In this document: positions 24,001-42,000 of the stretch, in pieces
Position numbering within the stretch: the first letter of the stretch is position 1
How the letters are laid out: every line of letters starts with the position of its first letter
Origin: a candidate division FCPU426 bacterium
Lineage (GTDB): Bacteria; Oederibacteriota; JAAXVQ01; JAUVAV01
Direction of reading: 5' to 3'
Assembly (NCBI GenBank): GCA_040756875.1
Contig: JBFLYH010000001.1
Location: 1,388,299-1,452,298 of the forward strand
DNA length: 64,000 bases
Position numbers: made by a program

Positions 24001-27000
24001 GGCCCGTGACAAACAGCTCCACATAGGCTTTGGCTGTGTAAGTCACCGAGGCGAAGCTGGGGCTGGTCACTGTGGTCCAGGTAGTGGCCGAACTCGCGAC
24101 ATTGGTCATTTCGGACCAGGTAAACGCCCCGGTCGGCTGGAAGACGCGGATGTTGCCGGTCACACCCGGGGTATTGCTTCGGATGCGTCCGCTCAGAGTG
24201 TACGTGGTGTTGGGTTTAAGGACAATGCTCTGCCGCAAATGATATTCCCGGCCACTCTGATCAGGCGGGGTGGTGTAACTTAAATAATGGCTGCCTTCGG
24301 GCGCGCCGCCGGTTTGCACGTTCGGCTGCCAGCCGCTTTGATAATAGCAGTCCAGCGTATTTTCCCAATTGGCGATGGTGTTGGCATAGTAAGTGTCTTC
24401 GAATCCGCCGTTGACCACACGCTGGCCCTGGATGCCCGTGGCACCGGGCATGAAGGAGGCGGCCAGAGGGTTCGAGGCAATGGCCGCCCGGGCATACGGG
24501 TCCCAGGCCCAATAGCAATTGCGATGGCCGTAATAGTCGTTCGCTTCGGGATAAGCGACTTCGCCCCAGCGCCCCACGGTCAGATAGACAGCCCAAAAAT
24601 TGTTGCCCAGGTCGGAAAACACCCGCGCCAGGTAACTTTCGAAAGCCGTGCGGTAATTCGGTTCCCAGATGCTGACCAGGGAGTCAGGCGCATTGCCATG
24701 ATTCTCAGGGTCCCAAGGCGAACCGTACTGGTTGACATAATGGGCGTTCGGATGGGCGGTCCAGTACCAATCCGGCACCGGGAAGGGGTTGACGCGCAGG
24801 ACAATGGCAAACCCTTTTTCGCGCAATTTGCGAATCTCGGCCTGTTTCTGGCTGATGTAATTGGCGTCGTATACGCCCTGACTGGGTTCGTACAGCGCCC
24901 AGCGGATGTATACGTTACGCAGTCTGAGCCCTGCCGTATATTCGGCGTCGAGATGGGAGGCATCCGTGGGTTCACCGTGATTAGGCTGGCCGGGATTGGA
25001 AATGGACTCGTCCCAGGCTGTCCCGTAAAAAGCGGCTTGAGCCGGCGAAAGGGACAAGCTGGCAAATAGAATAGAAAGAACAACGAATGTTTTCTTGCCT
25101 GGCATATGCAGGAGACCCCCTCCGGCAGGTTGGTGTGTCGGAAAAAAGACGGAAGATAATGTTTTTCCGGATCAGCGACGGAGGAAACCCAAGGATATAG
25201 TGGGAAACGGGTAAGGAAATATAAGTATATCACAAAATCAGTTAAAATCAATTTTACGCCTGAAAATAAAGTGCTTTTATCTTCCTACTTTACAGTTAGA
25301 CTCAGGCAAAACGTTTTTATAACACCCTAAAAATAAAACCAGGGGCGCATACTGCCTGCGCCCCTGGTCGGAATTCAGTCCAACGAATCAGGCTTTTTAA
25401 AAACGAACCGCCACGGCCACCTGATGGATCAATCCCAGATCACCATAAGAGCCCAGCGCATAGTCCACGTTGAAGATATCCAATTTGAACCCTATTCCCG
25501 CGGTCAGCCCTGCGATCCCGCCCATCTCGCCTGTATCCTTGATCTTGTACCCTACCCGCCCGGCCACCAGCTGGTCATACCAGTATTCAGTGCCCACGTT
25601 GACGGAAGTATAATTGACGTCGCCGAAAGGCAGGTTGACATCAAGCGCCACATTCCAAATGTCCCGGGAAGAGACCAGGGCCGGAAGCACGTAAGCGGCG
25701 CCCGCCTTGGCGTTCATGGGCAAATAAGCATCCGCCACTTTGGTCCCCAGGTTCTGGACCGCCAGTCCGATCTGCAACCCGTCTATGCCGGGCTTTAGCA
25801 AACCGCCCACATCCACAGCCACGGCGGAATACGTTTCAGTGTCGATGTTTTGGGTGAATACTTTCACCGCGCCGCCCACAGCCAGATTTTCCAGCAACCA
25901 CTGGCCGTAGCCGGCCGAGGCTGTCATCACATACGGGGTAAACTGGCCCTGGTCGACCGGCATCCCTGTGGCTTCATCAAAACCCGTTTTATCAATGGCG
26001 CCGTAGTTCAGGTAAGTCACATTGGCGCCAATGCCTGCGCCCGCGAAGAGATTCTGAGCGTACGCCAGGTACTCCTGGGACGTTTCCTCCAGGTAAATAT
26101 TGTGCATGAATCCGGCCTGATAGCCTTGCATTTGGGCCAAGCCCGCCGGGTTCCAGGCCAGGGCATTCAGGTCATCGGCCAAAGCCACGTACGCCTCGCC
26201 CATGGCTACGGGCCTGGCGCCCAGTCCCAACTTCAATTCCGACGCCCCTACCTTGCCGATATCATAATTCGTTTGCGCCGCCCAAACCACGCCTCCTGAA
26301 GAGATAATGACGACGACGGCCAGCCAAGCGATAATCGTTTTTGTCATGATTTTTAATCCCTCGATTTATAGTGATTGGATTTCTTAATAATTAGACTGAA
26401 GATGGCTGGTAAATATTACATTCATTTTTTGATTTTTTACCCGCAGGGCGCCCGAAGGCATGCTTGGGGCGCCCTGCAGGACAAAAGTTCCCGGGAACTG
26501 GCTGCTATTTGATGATTGCCACCTTCTTCTTCTGATCCACAACCACCCGGCCAGCCGCATCCGTCACCTGGATCCGGCACAGGTAGATGCCCGGCGCGAT
26601 ACCAGCGGCGTCCCAGATTGTGGTCAGGGTCTGCCCTGCCCCTCCCTGCTTGCGGTCCGTGATCCGCGCCACCCGTTCGCCGGTCAGGCGGTACACATCG
26701 ATGGTCACGCTCGCCTGCCCGGTCACGGTATAGGCGAAGGTGACGTGCCCCCTGGCCGGATTGGGATACGTGACCACTTTATGTTCACCCAGCCACGGCG
26801 TGGGGGTCGGCGTCGGCGTGGGGGTATTGGTGTTTACAACCGGGGTCGGCGTGTCTGCGGCCGCCGTCGGCGTGAAGGTGGGCGTGGTCGTGGGCGTGAA
26901 CGTCGGGCTGTTGGCTACGTACAGCGCCTGCCAACCCCCGGCCGAACTGCCGACGACCTCAGGCAGGCAGATCCGGACCCAATCCACTTCCAGGCCGCTG

Positions 27001-39000: not shown

Positions 39001-42000
39001 CGACGTGCTCGCCGATACCCCGCTCACTACAATTTCAATCATGGGATACGTCGCCGTATTCACAGTCTGCGCCGGAGACAGCACCTTGCCCCACGTGCTT
39101 TCCGCGGTCCGCGTCACCGCAGCCATCGAACTCGTGTACGAGTAGGCGATATGCGCGTTGTAGCTCGAATCCTGCGTCTCGTCCCACCAGTTGGTCGGCT
39201 GATCGCCGGCTATGCCCACGAAATGGTCCTGCCAAAAGTTGGACGTTGGACCGCCGGGCGTGGCCGTGGGCGTGATGGTGGGGGTAAAGGTCGGCGTGCC
39301 GGCAACGTCATAGATGCGTACGGAATCCACGACCACGTATGTTCCCGTGCCACCTTCTACGATGATCTCCACGCTGAACACGTGCACTCCGCTCAGCAAC
39401 CCGGTCAGCGTGGCATAGTTGAACGGAAACGTCCCGGTCCCGGTTTGCGACCCACTCAAATCCCAGTGCCGGTAGCTTCCCTCCTGCTCCTGGATCCCCA
39501 GCTTCCAGCTGGTGCTGGCTGAAAGCCCGGTGACCACGATCTCAATCATCGGATTAGCGGCCACATCCAAAGTCTGCGCCGGCGACAGCACCTTGCCCCA
39601 CGTGCTCTCCGCCGTGCGCGTCACTGCGGCCATGGAATTAACATAGGAATACGCGATGTGCGCGTTGAAATTCAAGTCCTGCGTCTCGTCCCACCAGTTG
39701 GTCGGCTGGTCGCCGGCCGTACCCACGAAATGTTCTTCCCAGACATTGGCCGCCTGGGTATTGACCGCCGCGAACACGATCAGTCCCATCACCGCGAGTA
39801 TTTTTTTCATTCCAGCCTCCCCACCAAACGGCCTCAGGCAGGATACGCCCAAAGCCTTGTATATATCGGGATTATATCATAGCGCAATATATAGTTAGAC
39901 TTGCAAAATACCCAAATCGTTTCACATTTTTTTTGTGAATGAGCGGAATAGGGCGAACCCCGCGCAAGCTGCTCGCGGGGTCCGCCCTATTTGCCGGTTT
40001 TATCGAATCAAGGCCACCTTCTTCTTCAATTTCATTACCTCGTTGCCACTGGCACCGGTTATTTCAATGCGGCAAATATAAATGCCCGGCGCCACGCCCT
40101 CGGCTTGCCAAGTCGTAACCAGGGTCTGCCCCTGGCCGCCGTCCCGGAATTCCGTGATCGCGGCTACCCGTTCCCCGGTCAGCCGGTAGATGTCAATCTT
40201 CACCTTGCCCGCACCTGCAAGTGTATAGGCGAAATGCACATTCCCGCGCGAGGGGTTGGGATAAGTCATGACCTGGTTTTTGCCCAGCCAGGGGGTGGGC
40301 GTGGAAGTCGGCGTCAGGGTCGGGGTTGATGTCGGTGTCAGGGATGGAATGGTTATTGGCGTCGAAGTGGGAGTGGGAGTAGGAGTGAATACAGAGGTAA
40401 CGGACGGCACCGGCGTCAGGGGAGCCATGGTACTGCCCATGACACTGCCCGCTTGGCCGACCCATAGATAGTCGACCTCAAACCATTTGCCGGCCGCGCC
40501 CTCCACGACCATCTCCAGATTGAACTCCTGGACGCCCGCCCACCCGGTTATCGCGGAATAATTGTAAGTATATTCCCCGGTGCTTGACGAGCTGTTCTGC
40601 AGGACGGCAAATTCCGTCTCGCTGTCTTTCTTGCGAATGATCAATTTCCATGCGGTGTCGGCCGAAATCCGGTCCACCTTGATTCCCACGATCGGATACT
40701 CACTGACGTTCGCTGTGAGCAAGGGAGACTGGACTTTTCCCCAGCCGATGGCATCCGCCGTGCGGGTAATACAAGCCACGGAATAGGCGGAGGAAAAAGC
40801 GACGTGCGCATTAAAGCCCGTGTCGTCGTTTTCGTCCTTCCACTCTTGCGGCTGCACCCATAATGTGCCTTTGAAATGGTCGGCCCAGGCCATGCCGGCC
40901 GGCAAGGTCGGTTCCGGCGGCCGGGTCCCGTTCACGACGCTGATGTTTTCCAGCCAGGCGGCGGCATAGTCGGTCGGCGAGGGCAGCACCCCGTTGGCCG
41001 CCCCCACGATCAGCCTGAAACTCCGGACGCCATTTTGCAGGCTTTCGGGGAGATAATACTTGAGGTTGTAAATATATTCGCCCGGCAGGCCTGCGTCGTA
41101 TTCCATCCGGACGATGGGATCGCTGGTCGAGCTGCCCAATTGCAAATAGGTATACCATACCTGCTGAACCTTCCGGACGTTCATCCTCACATCCGCTTCC
41201 TGGTCCATATCCACGGTAAACGGCTGGCTGGCGGCAATGCTGCCCCAAAAATCCTGGGTCGTCGATCCGGCAACATTGAGTTTGACTTCCGTGCCGTCTA
41301 TCACGCGGCTGGTCGAACCGTCGCGGACCGGCCACTGGGCGATGATGTCCGGCACTTGGTAGTTGAGCAGGATCTGTTCGGCGCCTGCGGCTGCCGGCAT
41401 CACGGCCAAGGGCGCGGCGGGCCTGGACACCTGGTTAAGCGGATTGAACGTCGTGCCTTGATAGGCGTTCAACACCGCTCCCACGCCGTCGCGCATGGCC
41501 CCGGCCGTGGTAAAACAACCCTTGTTTTGGGTGACAAAATCGTTCAAAGTCCAAATCATGGTGCCGGCGATGTCCGCGGAATATGCCTGCGAATAAACAC
41601 GGTTGAAATAGGCGGCGATTTGTTCCGCAGAATACCCGGCATTATAATCCAACCCGTGTTCTTCGAACAGAATCGGCCGGGTTACGCCTTTTTTCGCCAT
41701 AAGCTGTCTGGCCTGCATGACCATGCCCAGCTCCGGTTTGTCATCGCCGAGCGAATGGAGGGCAAAAACATCTATATTCGTCAGGTCCAGCGCCCGGATG
41801 GCAAAAGGCCGGCTGGAGGCAGCGACCAGAAGATGATTCGGGTCCTGGGCCTTCATATGTTCGGCCATGTTGGCATGCCACGCATACGCTTCGTCTTTTT
41901 TGCTTTGCAAAGCGAAATGCAGCGCATAAAGATCGAGTTCGCTGGTTACCCCCCAGGCAAAGATGCGGTCGTCCTCCTTGAAACGTTCAAGCACGGCGGT

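Follow-up and report, generated by a model that had tools for sequence, protein, structure and literature searches.

The 64,000-nt window analysed here, from a candidate division FCPU426 bacterium, carries on its minus strand (25397..39810) the two back-to-back cassettes that the survey's finding had described, each with a gene for a giant protein ending in a sorting domain (CTD) and then one for a barrel of about 315 aa. The interval is best explained as a pair of cassettes, each resembling a transcription unit and belonging to a large family, with a Sec signal, passenger, Pro/Thr linker and type-A CTD encoded ahead of the barrel. By analogy the best reading is that the barrels serve type-A cargo as cognate anchors or shuttles of a PorV-like kind, in a type IX secretion (T9SS)-like pathway without a detectable motor. 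That private PorV-like barrels anchor their own type-A cargos in such a pathway, motorless as far as detection goes, we hold at a probability of roughly 0.55. From the survey's overall interpretation the barrel family, the CTD type, the pairing, the SprA-like translocon and the undetectable motor stand; one barrel per cargo is overstated, and a PorU role for its C25 peptidase is improbable.

Anatomy of the minus-strand run

The features are given in the order in which they would be transcribed.

40000..44529, minus strand: CTD cargo gene, 1509 aa (TIGR04183 27 bits, cut-off 23, residues 1423-1500; own CTD HMM 92.9 bits)
36265..39852, minus strand: cassette 2 cargo, 1195 aa (TIGR04183 31 bits, residues 1109-1180)
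35299..36243, minus strand: cassette 2 barrel, 314 aa, PorV/PorQ family (NF033709 150.8 bits, cut-off 90)
35245..35275, minus strand: terminator-like hairpin, 14-bp stem and T run, 24 nt 3' of the cassette 2 barrel
26505..35159, minus strand: cassette 1 cargo, 2884 aa (NF052323 CTD end, Por_Secre_tail, own CTD HMM 92.9 bits)
25397..26347, minus strand: cassette 1 barrel, 316 aa, PorV/PorQ family (NF033709 164.1 bits, cut-off 90)
25337..25369, minus strand: terminator-like hairpin, 13-bp stem (9 GC) and T run, 28 nt 3' of the cassette 1 barrel
15614..25105, minus strand: CTD cargo gene, 3163 aa, LVIVD and FG-GAP repeats (TIGR04183 30.2 bits)
12918-15401, minus strand: CTD cargo gene, 827 aa, FG-GAP_3 (own CTD HMM, within 84.5-94.6 bits)
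9241-12741, minus strand: CTD cargo gene, 1166 aa (own CTD HMM, within 84.5-94.6 bits)
7815-9056, minus strand: CTD cargo gene, 413 aa (own CTD HMM, within 84.5-94.6 bits)
6833..7744, minus strand: small cargo, 303 aa, divergent CTD (own CTD HMM 28.8 bits; Pfam FlgD_ig 27.4 bits)
4872..6836, minus strand: third window barrel, 654 aa, PorV-like with a C-terminal TPR tail (own barrel HMM 90.6 bits)

The 1509-aa cargo gene opens the run and the next cargo gene starts 147 bp after it. The latter, of cassette 2, is 1195 aa long when counted from the first TTG, and its probable start is 39810, the Atlas record beginning at residue 15. It is laid out as a signal peptide, a passenger without a Pfam family, a Pro/Thr linker and a type-A CTD; Por_Secre_tail is its sole Pfam match and the Atlas offers only weak carbohydrate-binding-like leads, all below 0.9. 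Its barrel follows after 21 bp. The cassette 1 cargo similarly has a signal peptide, a passenger without a Pfam family, a PTPTPTPTP linker and a CTD, the last matching NF052323 positions 948-1032 at 31.5 bits and Pfam Por_Secre_tail at 24.4 bits (cut-off 27), and 157 bp separate it from its barrel. Of the four large window proteins all but the 2884-aa cargo match TIGR04183, at 27-31 bits (cut-off 23). Strong terminator-like hairpins lie 3' of both cassette barrels, and the stretch from cargo to barrel has none in either cassette; by a strict rule such a hairpin follows only 4 of 44 barrels genome-wide, and it is not a general feature.

Further along, the 3163-aa cargo (Pfam LVIVD 352.5, FG-GAP 120.7 and Por_Secre_tail 27.7 bits) is the first of five CTD genes in a run that closes with the barrel-TPR gene, the last junction being a 4-bp overlap (gap -4) with the small cargo gene. 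In this 654-aa protein the barrel part occupies residues about 31-306, the tail is a Pfam TPR_2 match (25.7 bits) and there is a weak PorP-family match (20.9 bits). Across the window there are three barrels for eight consecutive CTD genes.

Barrels, sorting domains and their pairing

Sequence and predicted fold support the barrels as FadL-like members of the PorV/PorQ family. The two cassette barrels, 57% identical to each other, share family and fold with canonical PorV and PorQ but reach neither equivalog cut-off (250 and 220 bits), scoring 73.7 (PorV) and 90.4 (PorQ) bits for cassette 1 and 50.4 and 84.2 bits for cassette 2, and at about 315 aa are shorter than the solved PorV chains (345-402 aa). 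A barrel profile again finds PorV 6h3i_F among solved structures, now at E 2.2e-32 (2e-28 in the survey), as the only significant solved sequence relative. With an AF2 model of the cassette 1 barrel (pLDDT 90.7) the fold search is topped by PorV 8gl6_F (E 7e-16, TM 0.76) and 6h3i_F, chains that belong to SprA complexes, and FadL and TodX come next. On the cargo side the CTD profile matches the PorU CTD 6za2_A at E 2.6e-6, reproducing a match previously put at 5.7e-8, and the substrate CTD 8glj_D at E 0.002, so that the proteins upstream of the barrels are supported, by sequence, as carriers of type-A CTDs.

The census used our own home-made gene calls (ORFs of at least 60 aa, the longest ORF being taken from its first start codon) and barrel and CTD HMMs built from window sequences. 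It returned 44 barrels at E<1e-10 and 101 ORFs with a C-terminal CTD, close to the 43 and 97 claimed; NF033709 alone gives 39 matches at E<=1e-10. Copies thus number 39-44 per genome against 0-3 full-length matches in four Bacteroidota controls. A CTD gene lies directly upstream on the same strand of 31/44 barrels, the identical count to that claimed, with gaps of -121 to +237, whereas 44 genes drawn at random 5000 times from a crude set of 2403 included 1.39 such cases on average and 6 at most (mean 1.2, maximum 7 in the survey). The pairing of barrel and CTD genes far above chance is therefore supported. Overlapping junctions are indeed seen, although at 21/31 by our start calls and not at 11/31, and 16/31 are exact NTGA overlaps (13 ATGA, 2 GTGA and 1 TTGA).

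One barrel per cargo is nevertheless an overstatement. Four further barrels have the CTD gene directly downstream and 9/44 have no adjacent CTD gene; a barrel comes directly after 31/101 CTD genes, 41/101 sit in same-strand runs terminating in a barrel and 60/101 in none. The 60 CTD genes outside such runs and the nine unaccompanied barrels mean that the system is not one-to-one. Paired CTDs score below the others against the CTD consensus (median 55.5 vs 76.6 bits), which speaks for co-divergence. The separation between paired and unpaired CTDs is only modest: 16/31 paired CTDs have another paired one as their closest CTD (shuffle mean 9.3, with 119/5000 shuffles as high), and within the window unpaired-to-paired similarity equals paired-to-paired similarity. 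Barrel and CTD distances co-vary, with a Mantel r of 0.387 (0/5000 permutations as high) that exceeds the earlier 0.264, a signal that co-duplication of whole cassettes can produce without binding specificity. Recent duplication is rife, since just 2/44 barrels resemble one from the distant-family genome G004 more closely than a same-genome paralogue.

At E<=1e-7 no Pfam family is assigned to 14/28 of the paired cargos outside the window. The paired cargos include three S8 subtilases and many giant proteins built of repeats (Ig-like, Kelch, FG-GAP, CarboxypepD_reg) that look like surface structures. The cassettes recur elsewhere, at 22/30 barrels in G004, at 13/30 best barrels across 30 genomes and at 54/80 loci on metagenome contigs.

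A point absent from the survey is the fusion of C-terminal extensions of at least 80 aa to 28/44 barrels, a difference from canonical PorV; the other 16/44 have no tail. Among 21 of the 28 tails, Pfam assigns OmpA to nine, TPR to seven and fn3 to one, and the remainder comprise FlgD_ig alone (one), phosphonate-binding (one) and none (two). The OmpA_C, TPR and fn3 tails are presumably periplasmic. Peptidoglycan-tethered barrels would fit an anchor role, yet 16/44 are untailed.

Secretion components and a proposed pathway

The claimed SprA-type translocon holds up, with TIGR04189 at 224.2 bits (cut-off 200) and a SprA-like gene in 40/41 phylum genomes sampled. A phmmer search of the protein against PDB again gave no match and the protein is, by these sequence scores, very divergent; because of this divergence equally divergent PorL/M could escape the profiles. 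PorV-family barrels occur in 41/41 genomes, with 8 to 40+ matches each. The one genome without a SprA match, G037, is 99% complete in 160 contigs and has 25 barrel matches, and its congener G006 has SprA. Profiles for GldK, GldL, GldM and GldN have 0 matches in this 100%-complete genome, a blank that persists beside positive controls in which all four were detected in 4/4 Bacteroidota; FGE-sulfatase also has 0 matches in this genome, and GldM is found in 0/41 phylum genomes. The C25 peptidase is confirmed as a peptidase partially like PorU (NF033707 84.3 of 420 bits), but its best solved relatives are gingipains (E 7.5e-10), PorU in PDB being matched through the CTD only. Peptidase_C25 occurs in only 5/41 phylum genomes against 7/9 in a Flavobacteriia control family, and the protein is therefore probably cargo and not a conserved sortase.

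A complex model of the cassette 1 barrel with its own cargo CTD reached an ipSAE of 0.89 against 0.00 for the best of three controls; the mark applied is reached by 116/157 solved complexes and 2/215 mismatched pairs. Runs share at least 89% of contacts with a partner pLDDT of at least 82, and the barrel contacts fall on presumably extracellular loops and on residues 22-40. The modelling covered a single cognate pair, and the pass may reflect likeness, because a similar PorV-CTD complex is already solved (8gl6/8glj); the modelled CTD has the same outer-face position as in those SprA-PorV-CTD complexes.

A pathway can be proposed in which the cargos would be bound, exported and kept at the surface with the CTD retained. 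Cargo, with its signal-peptide-like N-terminus, would cross the inner membrane by Sec and be steered by the CTD to the single SprA-like translocon, after which outer-face extracellular loops of the co-translated private barrel may, on the model, capture the CTD. The barrel would then retain the cargo on the surface non-covalently, in the way presumed for PorV with PorU, PorQ with PorZ and SprF with SprB. Presumably periplasmic tails, either TPR or peptidoglycan-binding OmpA_C, would tie some two thirds of the barrels to the envelope, in effect fusing the PorP and PorE roles that are separate proteins elsewhere. The pathway would run without a detectable PorL/M motor or PorK/N ring and, across the phylum, mostly without a PorU-type sortase. 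Where a CTD protein has no barrel of its own, an orphan barrel that is conserved would serve it instead, and for this there is one candidate.

C2:666385-667794: candidate shared orphan barrel with OmpA_C

A rather unlikely reading makes the barrels cargo-specific shuttles or release factors that, like PorV, take the CTD from the SprA lateral gate and then free the cargo to be secreted or passed to another attachment route. PorV, the nearest solved relative, is described as a shuttle (PMC5562754, PMC12618676), the three paired S8 subtilases might work as free enzymes, 16/44 barrels have no tether and the complex model is equally compatible with release. However, the OmpA_C, TPR or other tails of 28/44 would impede lateral movement, a PorU-type sortase to receive the cargo is present in just those 5/41 genomes, and the many giant repeat cargos resemble surface structures.

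It is quite improbable that the cassettes work as autonomous two-partner export units, each barrel inserting or exporting its own cargo by way of the CTD-barrel interaction and the SprA-like protein being unneeded for these cargos, even if neither motor nor ring is detectable, translational coupling suggests stoichiometric co-assembly and G037 has barrels without a SprA match. No pore for passengers of 1000-3000 aa is obvious in a FadL-like barrel of the PorV family that has a plug-like segment at its N-terminus, the SprA-like gene is kept in 40/41 genomes (G037 being in 160 contigs, with SprA in its congener), and the 60/101 CTD proteins without a barrel of their own retain the same CTD. Very doubtful too is the absence of any partnership, the barrels being uptake channels of the FadL type, or outer-membrane proteins of a generic kind, that are expressed together with surface proteins in the manner of polysaccharide-utilisation loci, and the statistics reflecting cassette duplication. 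FadL and TodX as next-best folds, weak Toluene_X and UPF0164 Pfam matches, rife duplication and a Mantel correlation predicted by co-duplication alone speak for it; against it PorV leads FadL by seven orders of E-value in the fold search and is the sole significant solved sequence relative, Toluene_X scores under its cut-off, the partner is defined by its CTD and not by an enzyme class (half of the paired cargos outside the window having no Pfam family at E<=1e-7) and in the complex model, whose controls scored 0.00, the CTD is seated on the barrel.

Relation to known systems

The pairing of private anchoring barrels with their cargos would, on our best reading, be analogous to SprF–SprB and porU–porV. 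As with PorP/SprF (Flavobacterium johnsoniae SprF-SprB; Porphyromonas gingivalis PorP-PorE-PG1035) there are many paralogous barrels, each beside the CTD gene that it would serve. Accounts of those systems describe cognate pairs of PorP/SprF barrel and type B CTD, together with a PorP-PorE-PG1035 complex, and propose the barrel as specific shuttle and surface anchor both (PMC12618676, PMC9143113). PorE, the partner of PorP, is described with TPR and OmpA_C-like domains (PMC12773672), the types fused to barrels here, where in contrast TPR and OmpA form part of the barrel protein and there is no separate PorE. PorP-family expansion in two control Flavobacteriia (11 and 18 matches at E<=0.001, some of the 18 being fragments) parallels the expansion here. 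Unlike in PorP/SprF systems, TIGR03519 scores no more than 21-24 bits here (cut-off 90.55) while the cassette barrels reach 150-164 bits with NF033709, the cargos bear type A and not type B CTDs, and PorKLMN is undetected; type-A CTDs are described as all recognised by a single PorV (PMC12618676).

With the Bacteroidota T9SS this genome shares a SprA/Sov-like translocon over the curated cut-off, about 100 type-A CTD proteins and PorV-family barrels; it differs in that GldK/PorK, GldL/PorL, GldM/PorM and GldN/PorN are undetectable and that a PorU-type C25 peptidase is rare in its phylum (5/41). Reviews place T9SS in Bacteroidota or the FCB group (PMC11205867), and this lineage, whose closest named proteins carry the NCBI label candidate division FCPU426, a division equated with Goldbacteria in one paper (PMC7031533), lies outside the group so described. 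The surface cellulase complex of Fibrobacter succinogenes is a further non-Bacteroidota case: surface enzymes with TIGR04183 CTDs are reported to join OmpA and TPR proteins in this multi-protein assembly (PMC6851124); compared by description only, that complex has no literature report that we found of paired PorV-like barrels such as those here. New in the present analysis are the barrel tails, the Gld positive controls, the rarity of C25, the cassettes in a distant family and in metagenomes, the phylum-wide GldM, SprA and barrel counts, and the complex model.

The survey also did not mention that the canonical porU-porV pair has the same layout: in Myroides and Chryseobacterium the porU gene, whose product is a type-A CTD protein, immediately precedes porV, the CTD gene coming first and the barrel gene after it.

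Cassettes in the window and across the genome

The large genes on the minus strand of the window form an unbroken run from 44529 down to 4872, made up of eight genes for proteins with a T9SS type-A C-terminal sorting domain (CTD; cargos) and of three barrel genes interleaved with them. The interval 25397 to 39810 is exactly the two middle cassettes of this run.

Genes of the CTD-barrel run in the window
40000-44529, minus, cargo, first in the run
36265-39852, minus, cargo of an interval cassette
35299-36243, minus, barrel, NF033709 150.8 bits
26505-35159, minus, cargo of 2884 aa, of an interval cassette
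25397-26347, minus, barrel, NF033709 164.1 bits
15614-25105, minus, cargo (CTD gene)
12918-15401, minus, cargo (CTD gene)
9241-12741, minus, cargo (CTD gene)
7815-9056, minus, cargo (CTD gene)
6833-7744, minus, cargo (CTD gene)
4872-6836, minus, barrel-TPR gene, end of the run

Within 24800-40400 the two strongest terminator-like hairpins sit 24-28 nt 3' of each barrel, and a scan of the same stretch gave none between cargo and barrel. These hairpins are best taken as local facts, because a perfect stem of at least 8 bp with a T tail within 90 nt is found at only 4 of the 44 barrels of the genome (3 of the 31 paired ones, and 8 of 400 control ORFs), and terminators as a general cassette boundary were set aside.

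The source genome, of 3.22 Mb in 7 contigs, was scored at 100% completeness and 0.09% contamination. A census with our own ORFs, that is home-made gene calls, and profiles seeded from the window alone (that for the barrels built from 16 tail-less ones) yielded 44 barrels and 101 CTD-ending ORFs. For 31 of these barrels the immediate same-strand upstream neighbour is a CTD gene, the very count of the survey's finding reproduced with separate gene calls, and 44 genes drawn at random from a crude 2403-gene set give a mean of 1.39 and a maximum of 6 such neighbours in 5000 draws. At 16 of the 31 junctions the two genes overlap by the four bases NTGA (ATGA in 13 cases), which in sequence terms is a signature of translational coupling. 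Among the 13 unpaired barrels a CTD gene lies directly downstream of four. Same-strand, barrel-terminated runs take in 41 of the 101 CTD genes and leave 60 outside, so that the relation is not one dedicated barrel per cargo; a private barrel goes with many of the cargos or cargo operons.

The minus-strand genes next upstream of the CTD run (44575-51240) may regulate the cluster; they encode a 960-aa Kelch-repeat protein, in which no CTD was detected, an ECF-type sigma factor (47636-48253), a sigma-54 response regulator (48490-49860) and a histidine kinase (49876-51240). At 53326-56373, minus, lies the gene for a DEAD-box helicase of 1015 aa that has an MrfA Zn-binding domain (MZB) and an HRQ1-type winged helix. 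At the other end of the window, also on the minus strand, a HAMP-adenylate/guanylate cyclase gene (15-1535) adjoins that of a sCache-HAMP-HD_5 (HD-GYP-like) protein (1537-2820). Facing the barrel-TPR gene, on the plus strand, is a gene (3086-4729) for a PD40/WD40 beta-propeller protein of 547 aa that has a PT repeat; this protein matched a tail-containing barrel profile, probably via tail similarity, and is not a barrel.

The barrels, their tails and their cargos

Both interval barrels pass NF033709, the PorV/PorQ family model (cut-off 90 bits), at 164.1 and 150.8 bits, as do two orphan barrels at 172.7 and 136.1 bits, and the model finds 39 matches in the genome at E<=1e-10; a divergent orphan barrel at C1:1006273-1007241 gave no NCBIfam match at 1e-6. 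The PorV and PorQ equivalogs NF033710 and NF033711 (cut-offs 250 and 220 bits) were not reached, with 73.7 and 50.4 bits for PorV and 90.4 and 84.2 bits for PorQ. Searched against all PDB sequences, a 59-sequence barrel profile returned only PorV 6h3i_F (E 2.2e-32) and, marginally, TodX. An AlphaFold2 model of a barrel (pLDDT 90.7, pTM 0.83) led by Foldseek to 8gl6_F (E 7e-16, TM 0.76) and then 6h3i_F, the PorV chains of SprA translocon complexes; FadL and TodX follow at E-values no better than 1e-9.

Two other barrel families were weighed against this assignment. Transporters of the FadL/TodX kind share something of the fold, and Toluene_X (PF03349) gives 16.7-26.3 bits on 5 of the 21 barrels scanned, all below its threshold of 29.7, and the fold likeness comes second to that of PorV. 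For the PorP/SprF family TIGR03519 gives only 21-24 bits against a cut-off of 90.55, and this on three PorV-like barrels only; the same model goes over its cut-off in 3 of 4 Bacteroidota control genomes, with 11 and 18 matches in two of them (some of the 18 being fragments). On the cargo side an NCBIfam scan gave type-A related models only.

The survey's placing of the barrels in the PorV/PorQ family thus stands, and what it had not described is that 28 of the 44 extend 80-560 residues past the last strand, leaving 16 bare. Pfam domains in the 21 tails scanned are OmpA_C in nine, mostly with a FlgD_ig-like domain ahead of it, TPR in seven, and fn3, FlgD_ig alone and a phosphonate-binding-protein domain in one each, with none in two; the other seven resemble scanned tails by BLAST, which would bring the totals to about 12 OmpA, 8 TPR, 3 fn3 and 2 FlgD_ig. 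Since outer-membrane barrels have their C-terminal end in the periplasm, these tails should be periplasmic, and the peptidoglycan-binding OmpA_C fits such a location. An odd partner for an outer-membrane barrel is seen at C2:864166-866352 (locus L018), where one protein combines a PorV-like barrel with a phosphonate-type periplasmic substrate-binding domain (PF12974, 57 bits).

Of four large window proteins scanned for the sorting domain, three match TIGR04183 at 27-31 bits (cut-off 23). The only matches to the CTD of the 2884-aa cargo came from the terminal CTD portion of other T9SS models and from PF18962 at 24.4 bits (cut-off 27); this CTD is 47-63% identical to six of the eight other window CTDs compared and 26-30% to two divergent ones. 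A Pro/Thr-rich linker precedes every window CTD, and the CTD profile matches 6za2_A and 8glj_D in the PDB. Outside the CTD neither interval cargo has a Pfam family, and an Atlas search for the identity of the 1195-aa cargo gave scores of at most 0.87, with galactose-binding or CBM-like leads that are not counted as evidence. Half of the 28 paired cargos encoded elsewhere in the genome (14) are without a Pfam family at E<=1e-7, and the others carry CarboxypepD_reg, Kelch, Big_1, FG-GAP or FlgD_ig-type repeats, three being S8 subtilases. By a crude hydrophobicity rule 24 of the 31 paired barrels and 28 of the 31 paired cargos have signal-peptide-like starts. A 7689-aa open frame at C1:~1011196-1018752 is matched at several internal places by the CTD part of the PorU model, which suggests from sequence a giant protein with repeated CTD-like Ig domains.

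Across the 31 pairs the distances among barrels correlate with those among CTDs (Mantel r 0.387, a value reached by 0 of 5000 permutations), a correlation that co-duplication alone could give. The paired CTDs lie further from the family consensus (median 55.5 bits versus 76.6 bits), and a separate clade of paired CTDs was not borne out, clustering being modest (16 of 31 versus 9.3 on average after shuffling, and 119 of 5000 shuffles reach 16 or more). A complex model of one pair, a window barrel and its own cargo's CTD, both entered as alignments, scored 0.89 versus 0.00 for the best control, a mark reached by 116 of 157 solved complexes and by 2 of 215 mismatches. The runs share at least 89% of contacts with a partner pLDDT of at least 82, and the contacts involve residues 22-40 and loops that face outward, counting back from the model's periplasmic C-terminus. 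The score is a model's support for binding of cargo CTDs by these barrels at the cell surface; because PorV-CTD complexes are already solved (8gl6/8glj), it may reflect likeness to these and, being of one pair, is silent on cognate specificity.

Translocon, motor, ring and sortase

The SprA/Sov translocon is recognised by TIGR04189 at 224.2 bits (cut-off 200) in collinear pieces along one 2111-aa ORF, and a phmmer search of it against the PDB, blank in the survey, was again blank apart from chance Ig-like matches. The SprA-like gene (C1:863629-869964; locus L055, 9630-15965) divergently adjoins the LPS-export permease genes lptF-lptG, and this divergent arrangement is seen in 6 of 7 genomes compared from several families of the phylum (among them loci L240-L243 and L245), lptF-lptG being the only genes so far seen in synteny with SprA. 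In family f9 genomes and at locus L244, SprA has a second ORF, 950-1545 aa long, immediately after it. Elsewhere in the source genome (C1:1002060-1007241, locus L207) another ORF (1067 aa) weakly resembles SprA over one stretch (TIGR04189 at 30.9 bits, covering model positions 589-712) and adjoins an NHL-repeat protein and the divergent orphan barrel.

For the motor, TIGR03513 and TIGR03517 (GldL/PorL and GldM/PorM), and for the ring, TIGR03525 and TIGR03523 (GldK/PorK and GldN/PorN), there are 0 matches in this 100%-complete genome, and each of the four families matches in 4 of 4 named Bacteroidota controls (Flagellimonas, Chryseobacterium, Sphingobacterium and Myroides, reached by a 16S probe pattern). 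The report that PorK, PorL and PorM are not detectable therefore now comes with positive controls. The FGE-sulfatase family PF03781, the fold of PorK, likewise has 0 matches here and is matched in 3 of 14 standard control genomes. Given how divergent SprA is here, motor proteins as divergent could have escaped the profiles. In Flavobacterium, one study states, disruption of the motor traps substrate in the translocon (PMC10994853).

The gene that the survey called PorU-like encodes a C25 peptidase with a CTD and does not hold up as PorU: NF033707 reaches 84.3 of 420 bits, over the catalytic core only, the best solved relatives are gingipains, and PorU in the PDB is matched only through the CTD. 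In a sample of 41 related genomes of the phylum (16 families, 35 genera) Peptidase_C25 (PF01364) occurs in 5, versus PorU-sized proteins in 7 of 9 genomes of the Flavobacteriia control family; NF033707 goes over its cut-off in 0 of the 41 among the 13 candidates scored per genome, and the PF01364 counts were relied on instead. On these grounds the C25 gene is read as a sporadic cargo and not as the sortase of the system.

Relation to known type IX systems and distribution in the phylum

The whole case is built from sequence, models and gene order. In PorU and PorZ the CTD is retained, and PorV and PorQ hold these two proteins on the surface. The canonical porU-porV pair has the same order as the cassettes, a type-A CTD protein followed by a PorV-family barrel, as confirmed in Myroides and Chryseobacterium. 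With the T9SS of Bacteroidota this system shares SprA/Sov, but the PorLM motor, the PorKN ring and the PorU sortase were not found here by profile. For type-B CTDs two sources describe cognate PorP/SprF barrels as established specific shuttles and anchors (PMC12618676, PMC9143113), and PorE, the partner of PorP, is described in a third source as a TPR/WD40/CRD/OmpA_C protein (PMC12773672). Where those systems join cognate barrels to type-B CTDs, here PorV-like barrels go with type-A CTDs and many have PorE-like domains fused to them, and such private barrels would hold or guide their own type-A cargos. By analogy, the simplest reading is that the phylum did the same as the PorP/SprF systems but with CTDs of the other type and another family of barrels. 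That a PorU-type sortase is so rare speaks for non-covalent retention rather than attachment to A-LPS.

A further conjecture, to which we give odds well short of even, is that the T9SS here is functional yet reduced to SprA, PorV-like barrels and CTDs, lacking the PorLM motor, the PorKN ring and mostly the sortase as well. Each type-A cargo would pass to a PorV paralogue of its own, often one tethered to peptidoglycan, on which the CTD, left uncleaved, would stay as a permanent, non-covalent anchor to the surface; SprA, PorV and CTD would then be the ancestral type IX core, and motor, ring and A-LPS sortase Bacteroidota additions.

Current accounts have one PorV for type-A cargos and an export that depends on the PorLM motor, whose removal traps substrate in the translocon (PMC10994853). 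A whole phylum that keeps translocon, CTD signal and PorV-like barrels without a detectable motor or ring, its barrels expanded into sets of paralogues linked to cargos, extends T9SS-like export to an uncultured lineage from groundwater and suggests a modular way for Gram-negative cells to display very large proteins on their surface. Provided that the pathway works, it would set the essentials of crossing the outer membrane apart from what the motor contributes, and would offer about 30 natural CTD-barrel pairs in one genome for the study of CTD recognition. The parts are already annotated, since individual relatives are named "PorV/PorQ family protein" by NCBI. Outside subscription journals and supplements, the literature searched gave nothing linking FCPU426, Goldbacteria or Firestonebacteria to T9SS, and nothing on the barrel expansion, the pairing of PorV paralogues with type-A cargos or the fused tails; in the accessible part of a Goldbacteria paper that mentions FCPU426, T9SS occurs only in the reference list (PMC7031533).

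Among the 41 genomes GldM is found in none, a SprA-like protein in 40 and PorV-family barrels in all, with 8 to at least 40 matches each; the four Bacteroidota controls have 0-3 full-length PorV-family matches. The one genome with no SprA match at E<=1e-10 nor among first-look candidates (G037, 99% complete in 160 contigs) has 25 PorV-family matches, and SprA is present in its congener G006; either a gap in the assembly or true loss of the gene may lie behind this blank.

CTDs outside the source genome were detected with a profile trained on it. In G004, a single-contig genome from another family of the phylum, a CTD lies directly upstream of 22 of the best 30 barrels of 35 matches. Ancient one-to-one orthology of the barrels is not borne out: only 2 of the 44 source-genome barrels are nearer to a G004 barrel (best 30 of 35, barrel tails being cut at locus ends) than to a paralogue in their own genome, from which it is concluded that the family turns over within lineages.

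When the best barrel of each of 30 genomes, the source genome included, is taken, a CTD is directly upstream in 13. The closest source-genome gene for 16 of these 30 is C2:666385-667794, which encodes a barrel with OmpA_C, stands among housekeeping genes and scores 172.7 bits for the PorV/PorQ family, 103.5 for PorQ and 67.5 for PorV; the upstream CTD is missing for 13 of the 16, and this gene is put forward as a possible general barrel, shared by cargos. More distant barrels, including one with the NCBI label Elusimicrobiota, were aligned, and a search with the alignment found 80 metagenome loci; 75 of them have at least 400 nt of upstream DNA, and a CTD lies directly upstream in 54.
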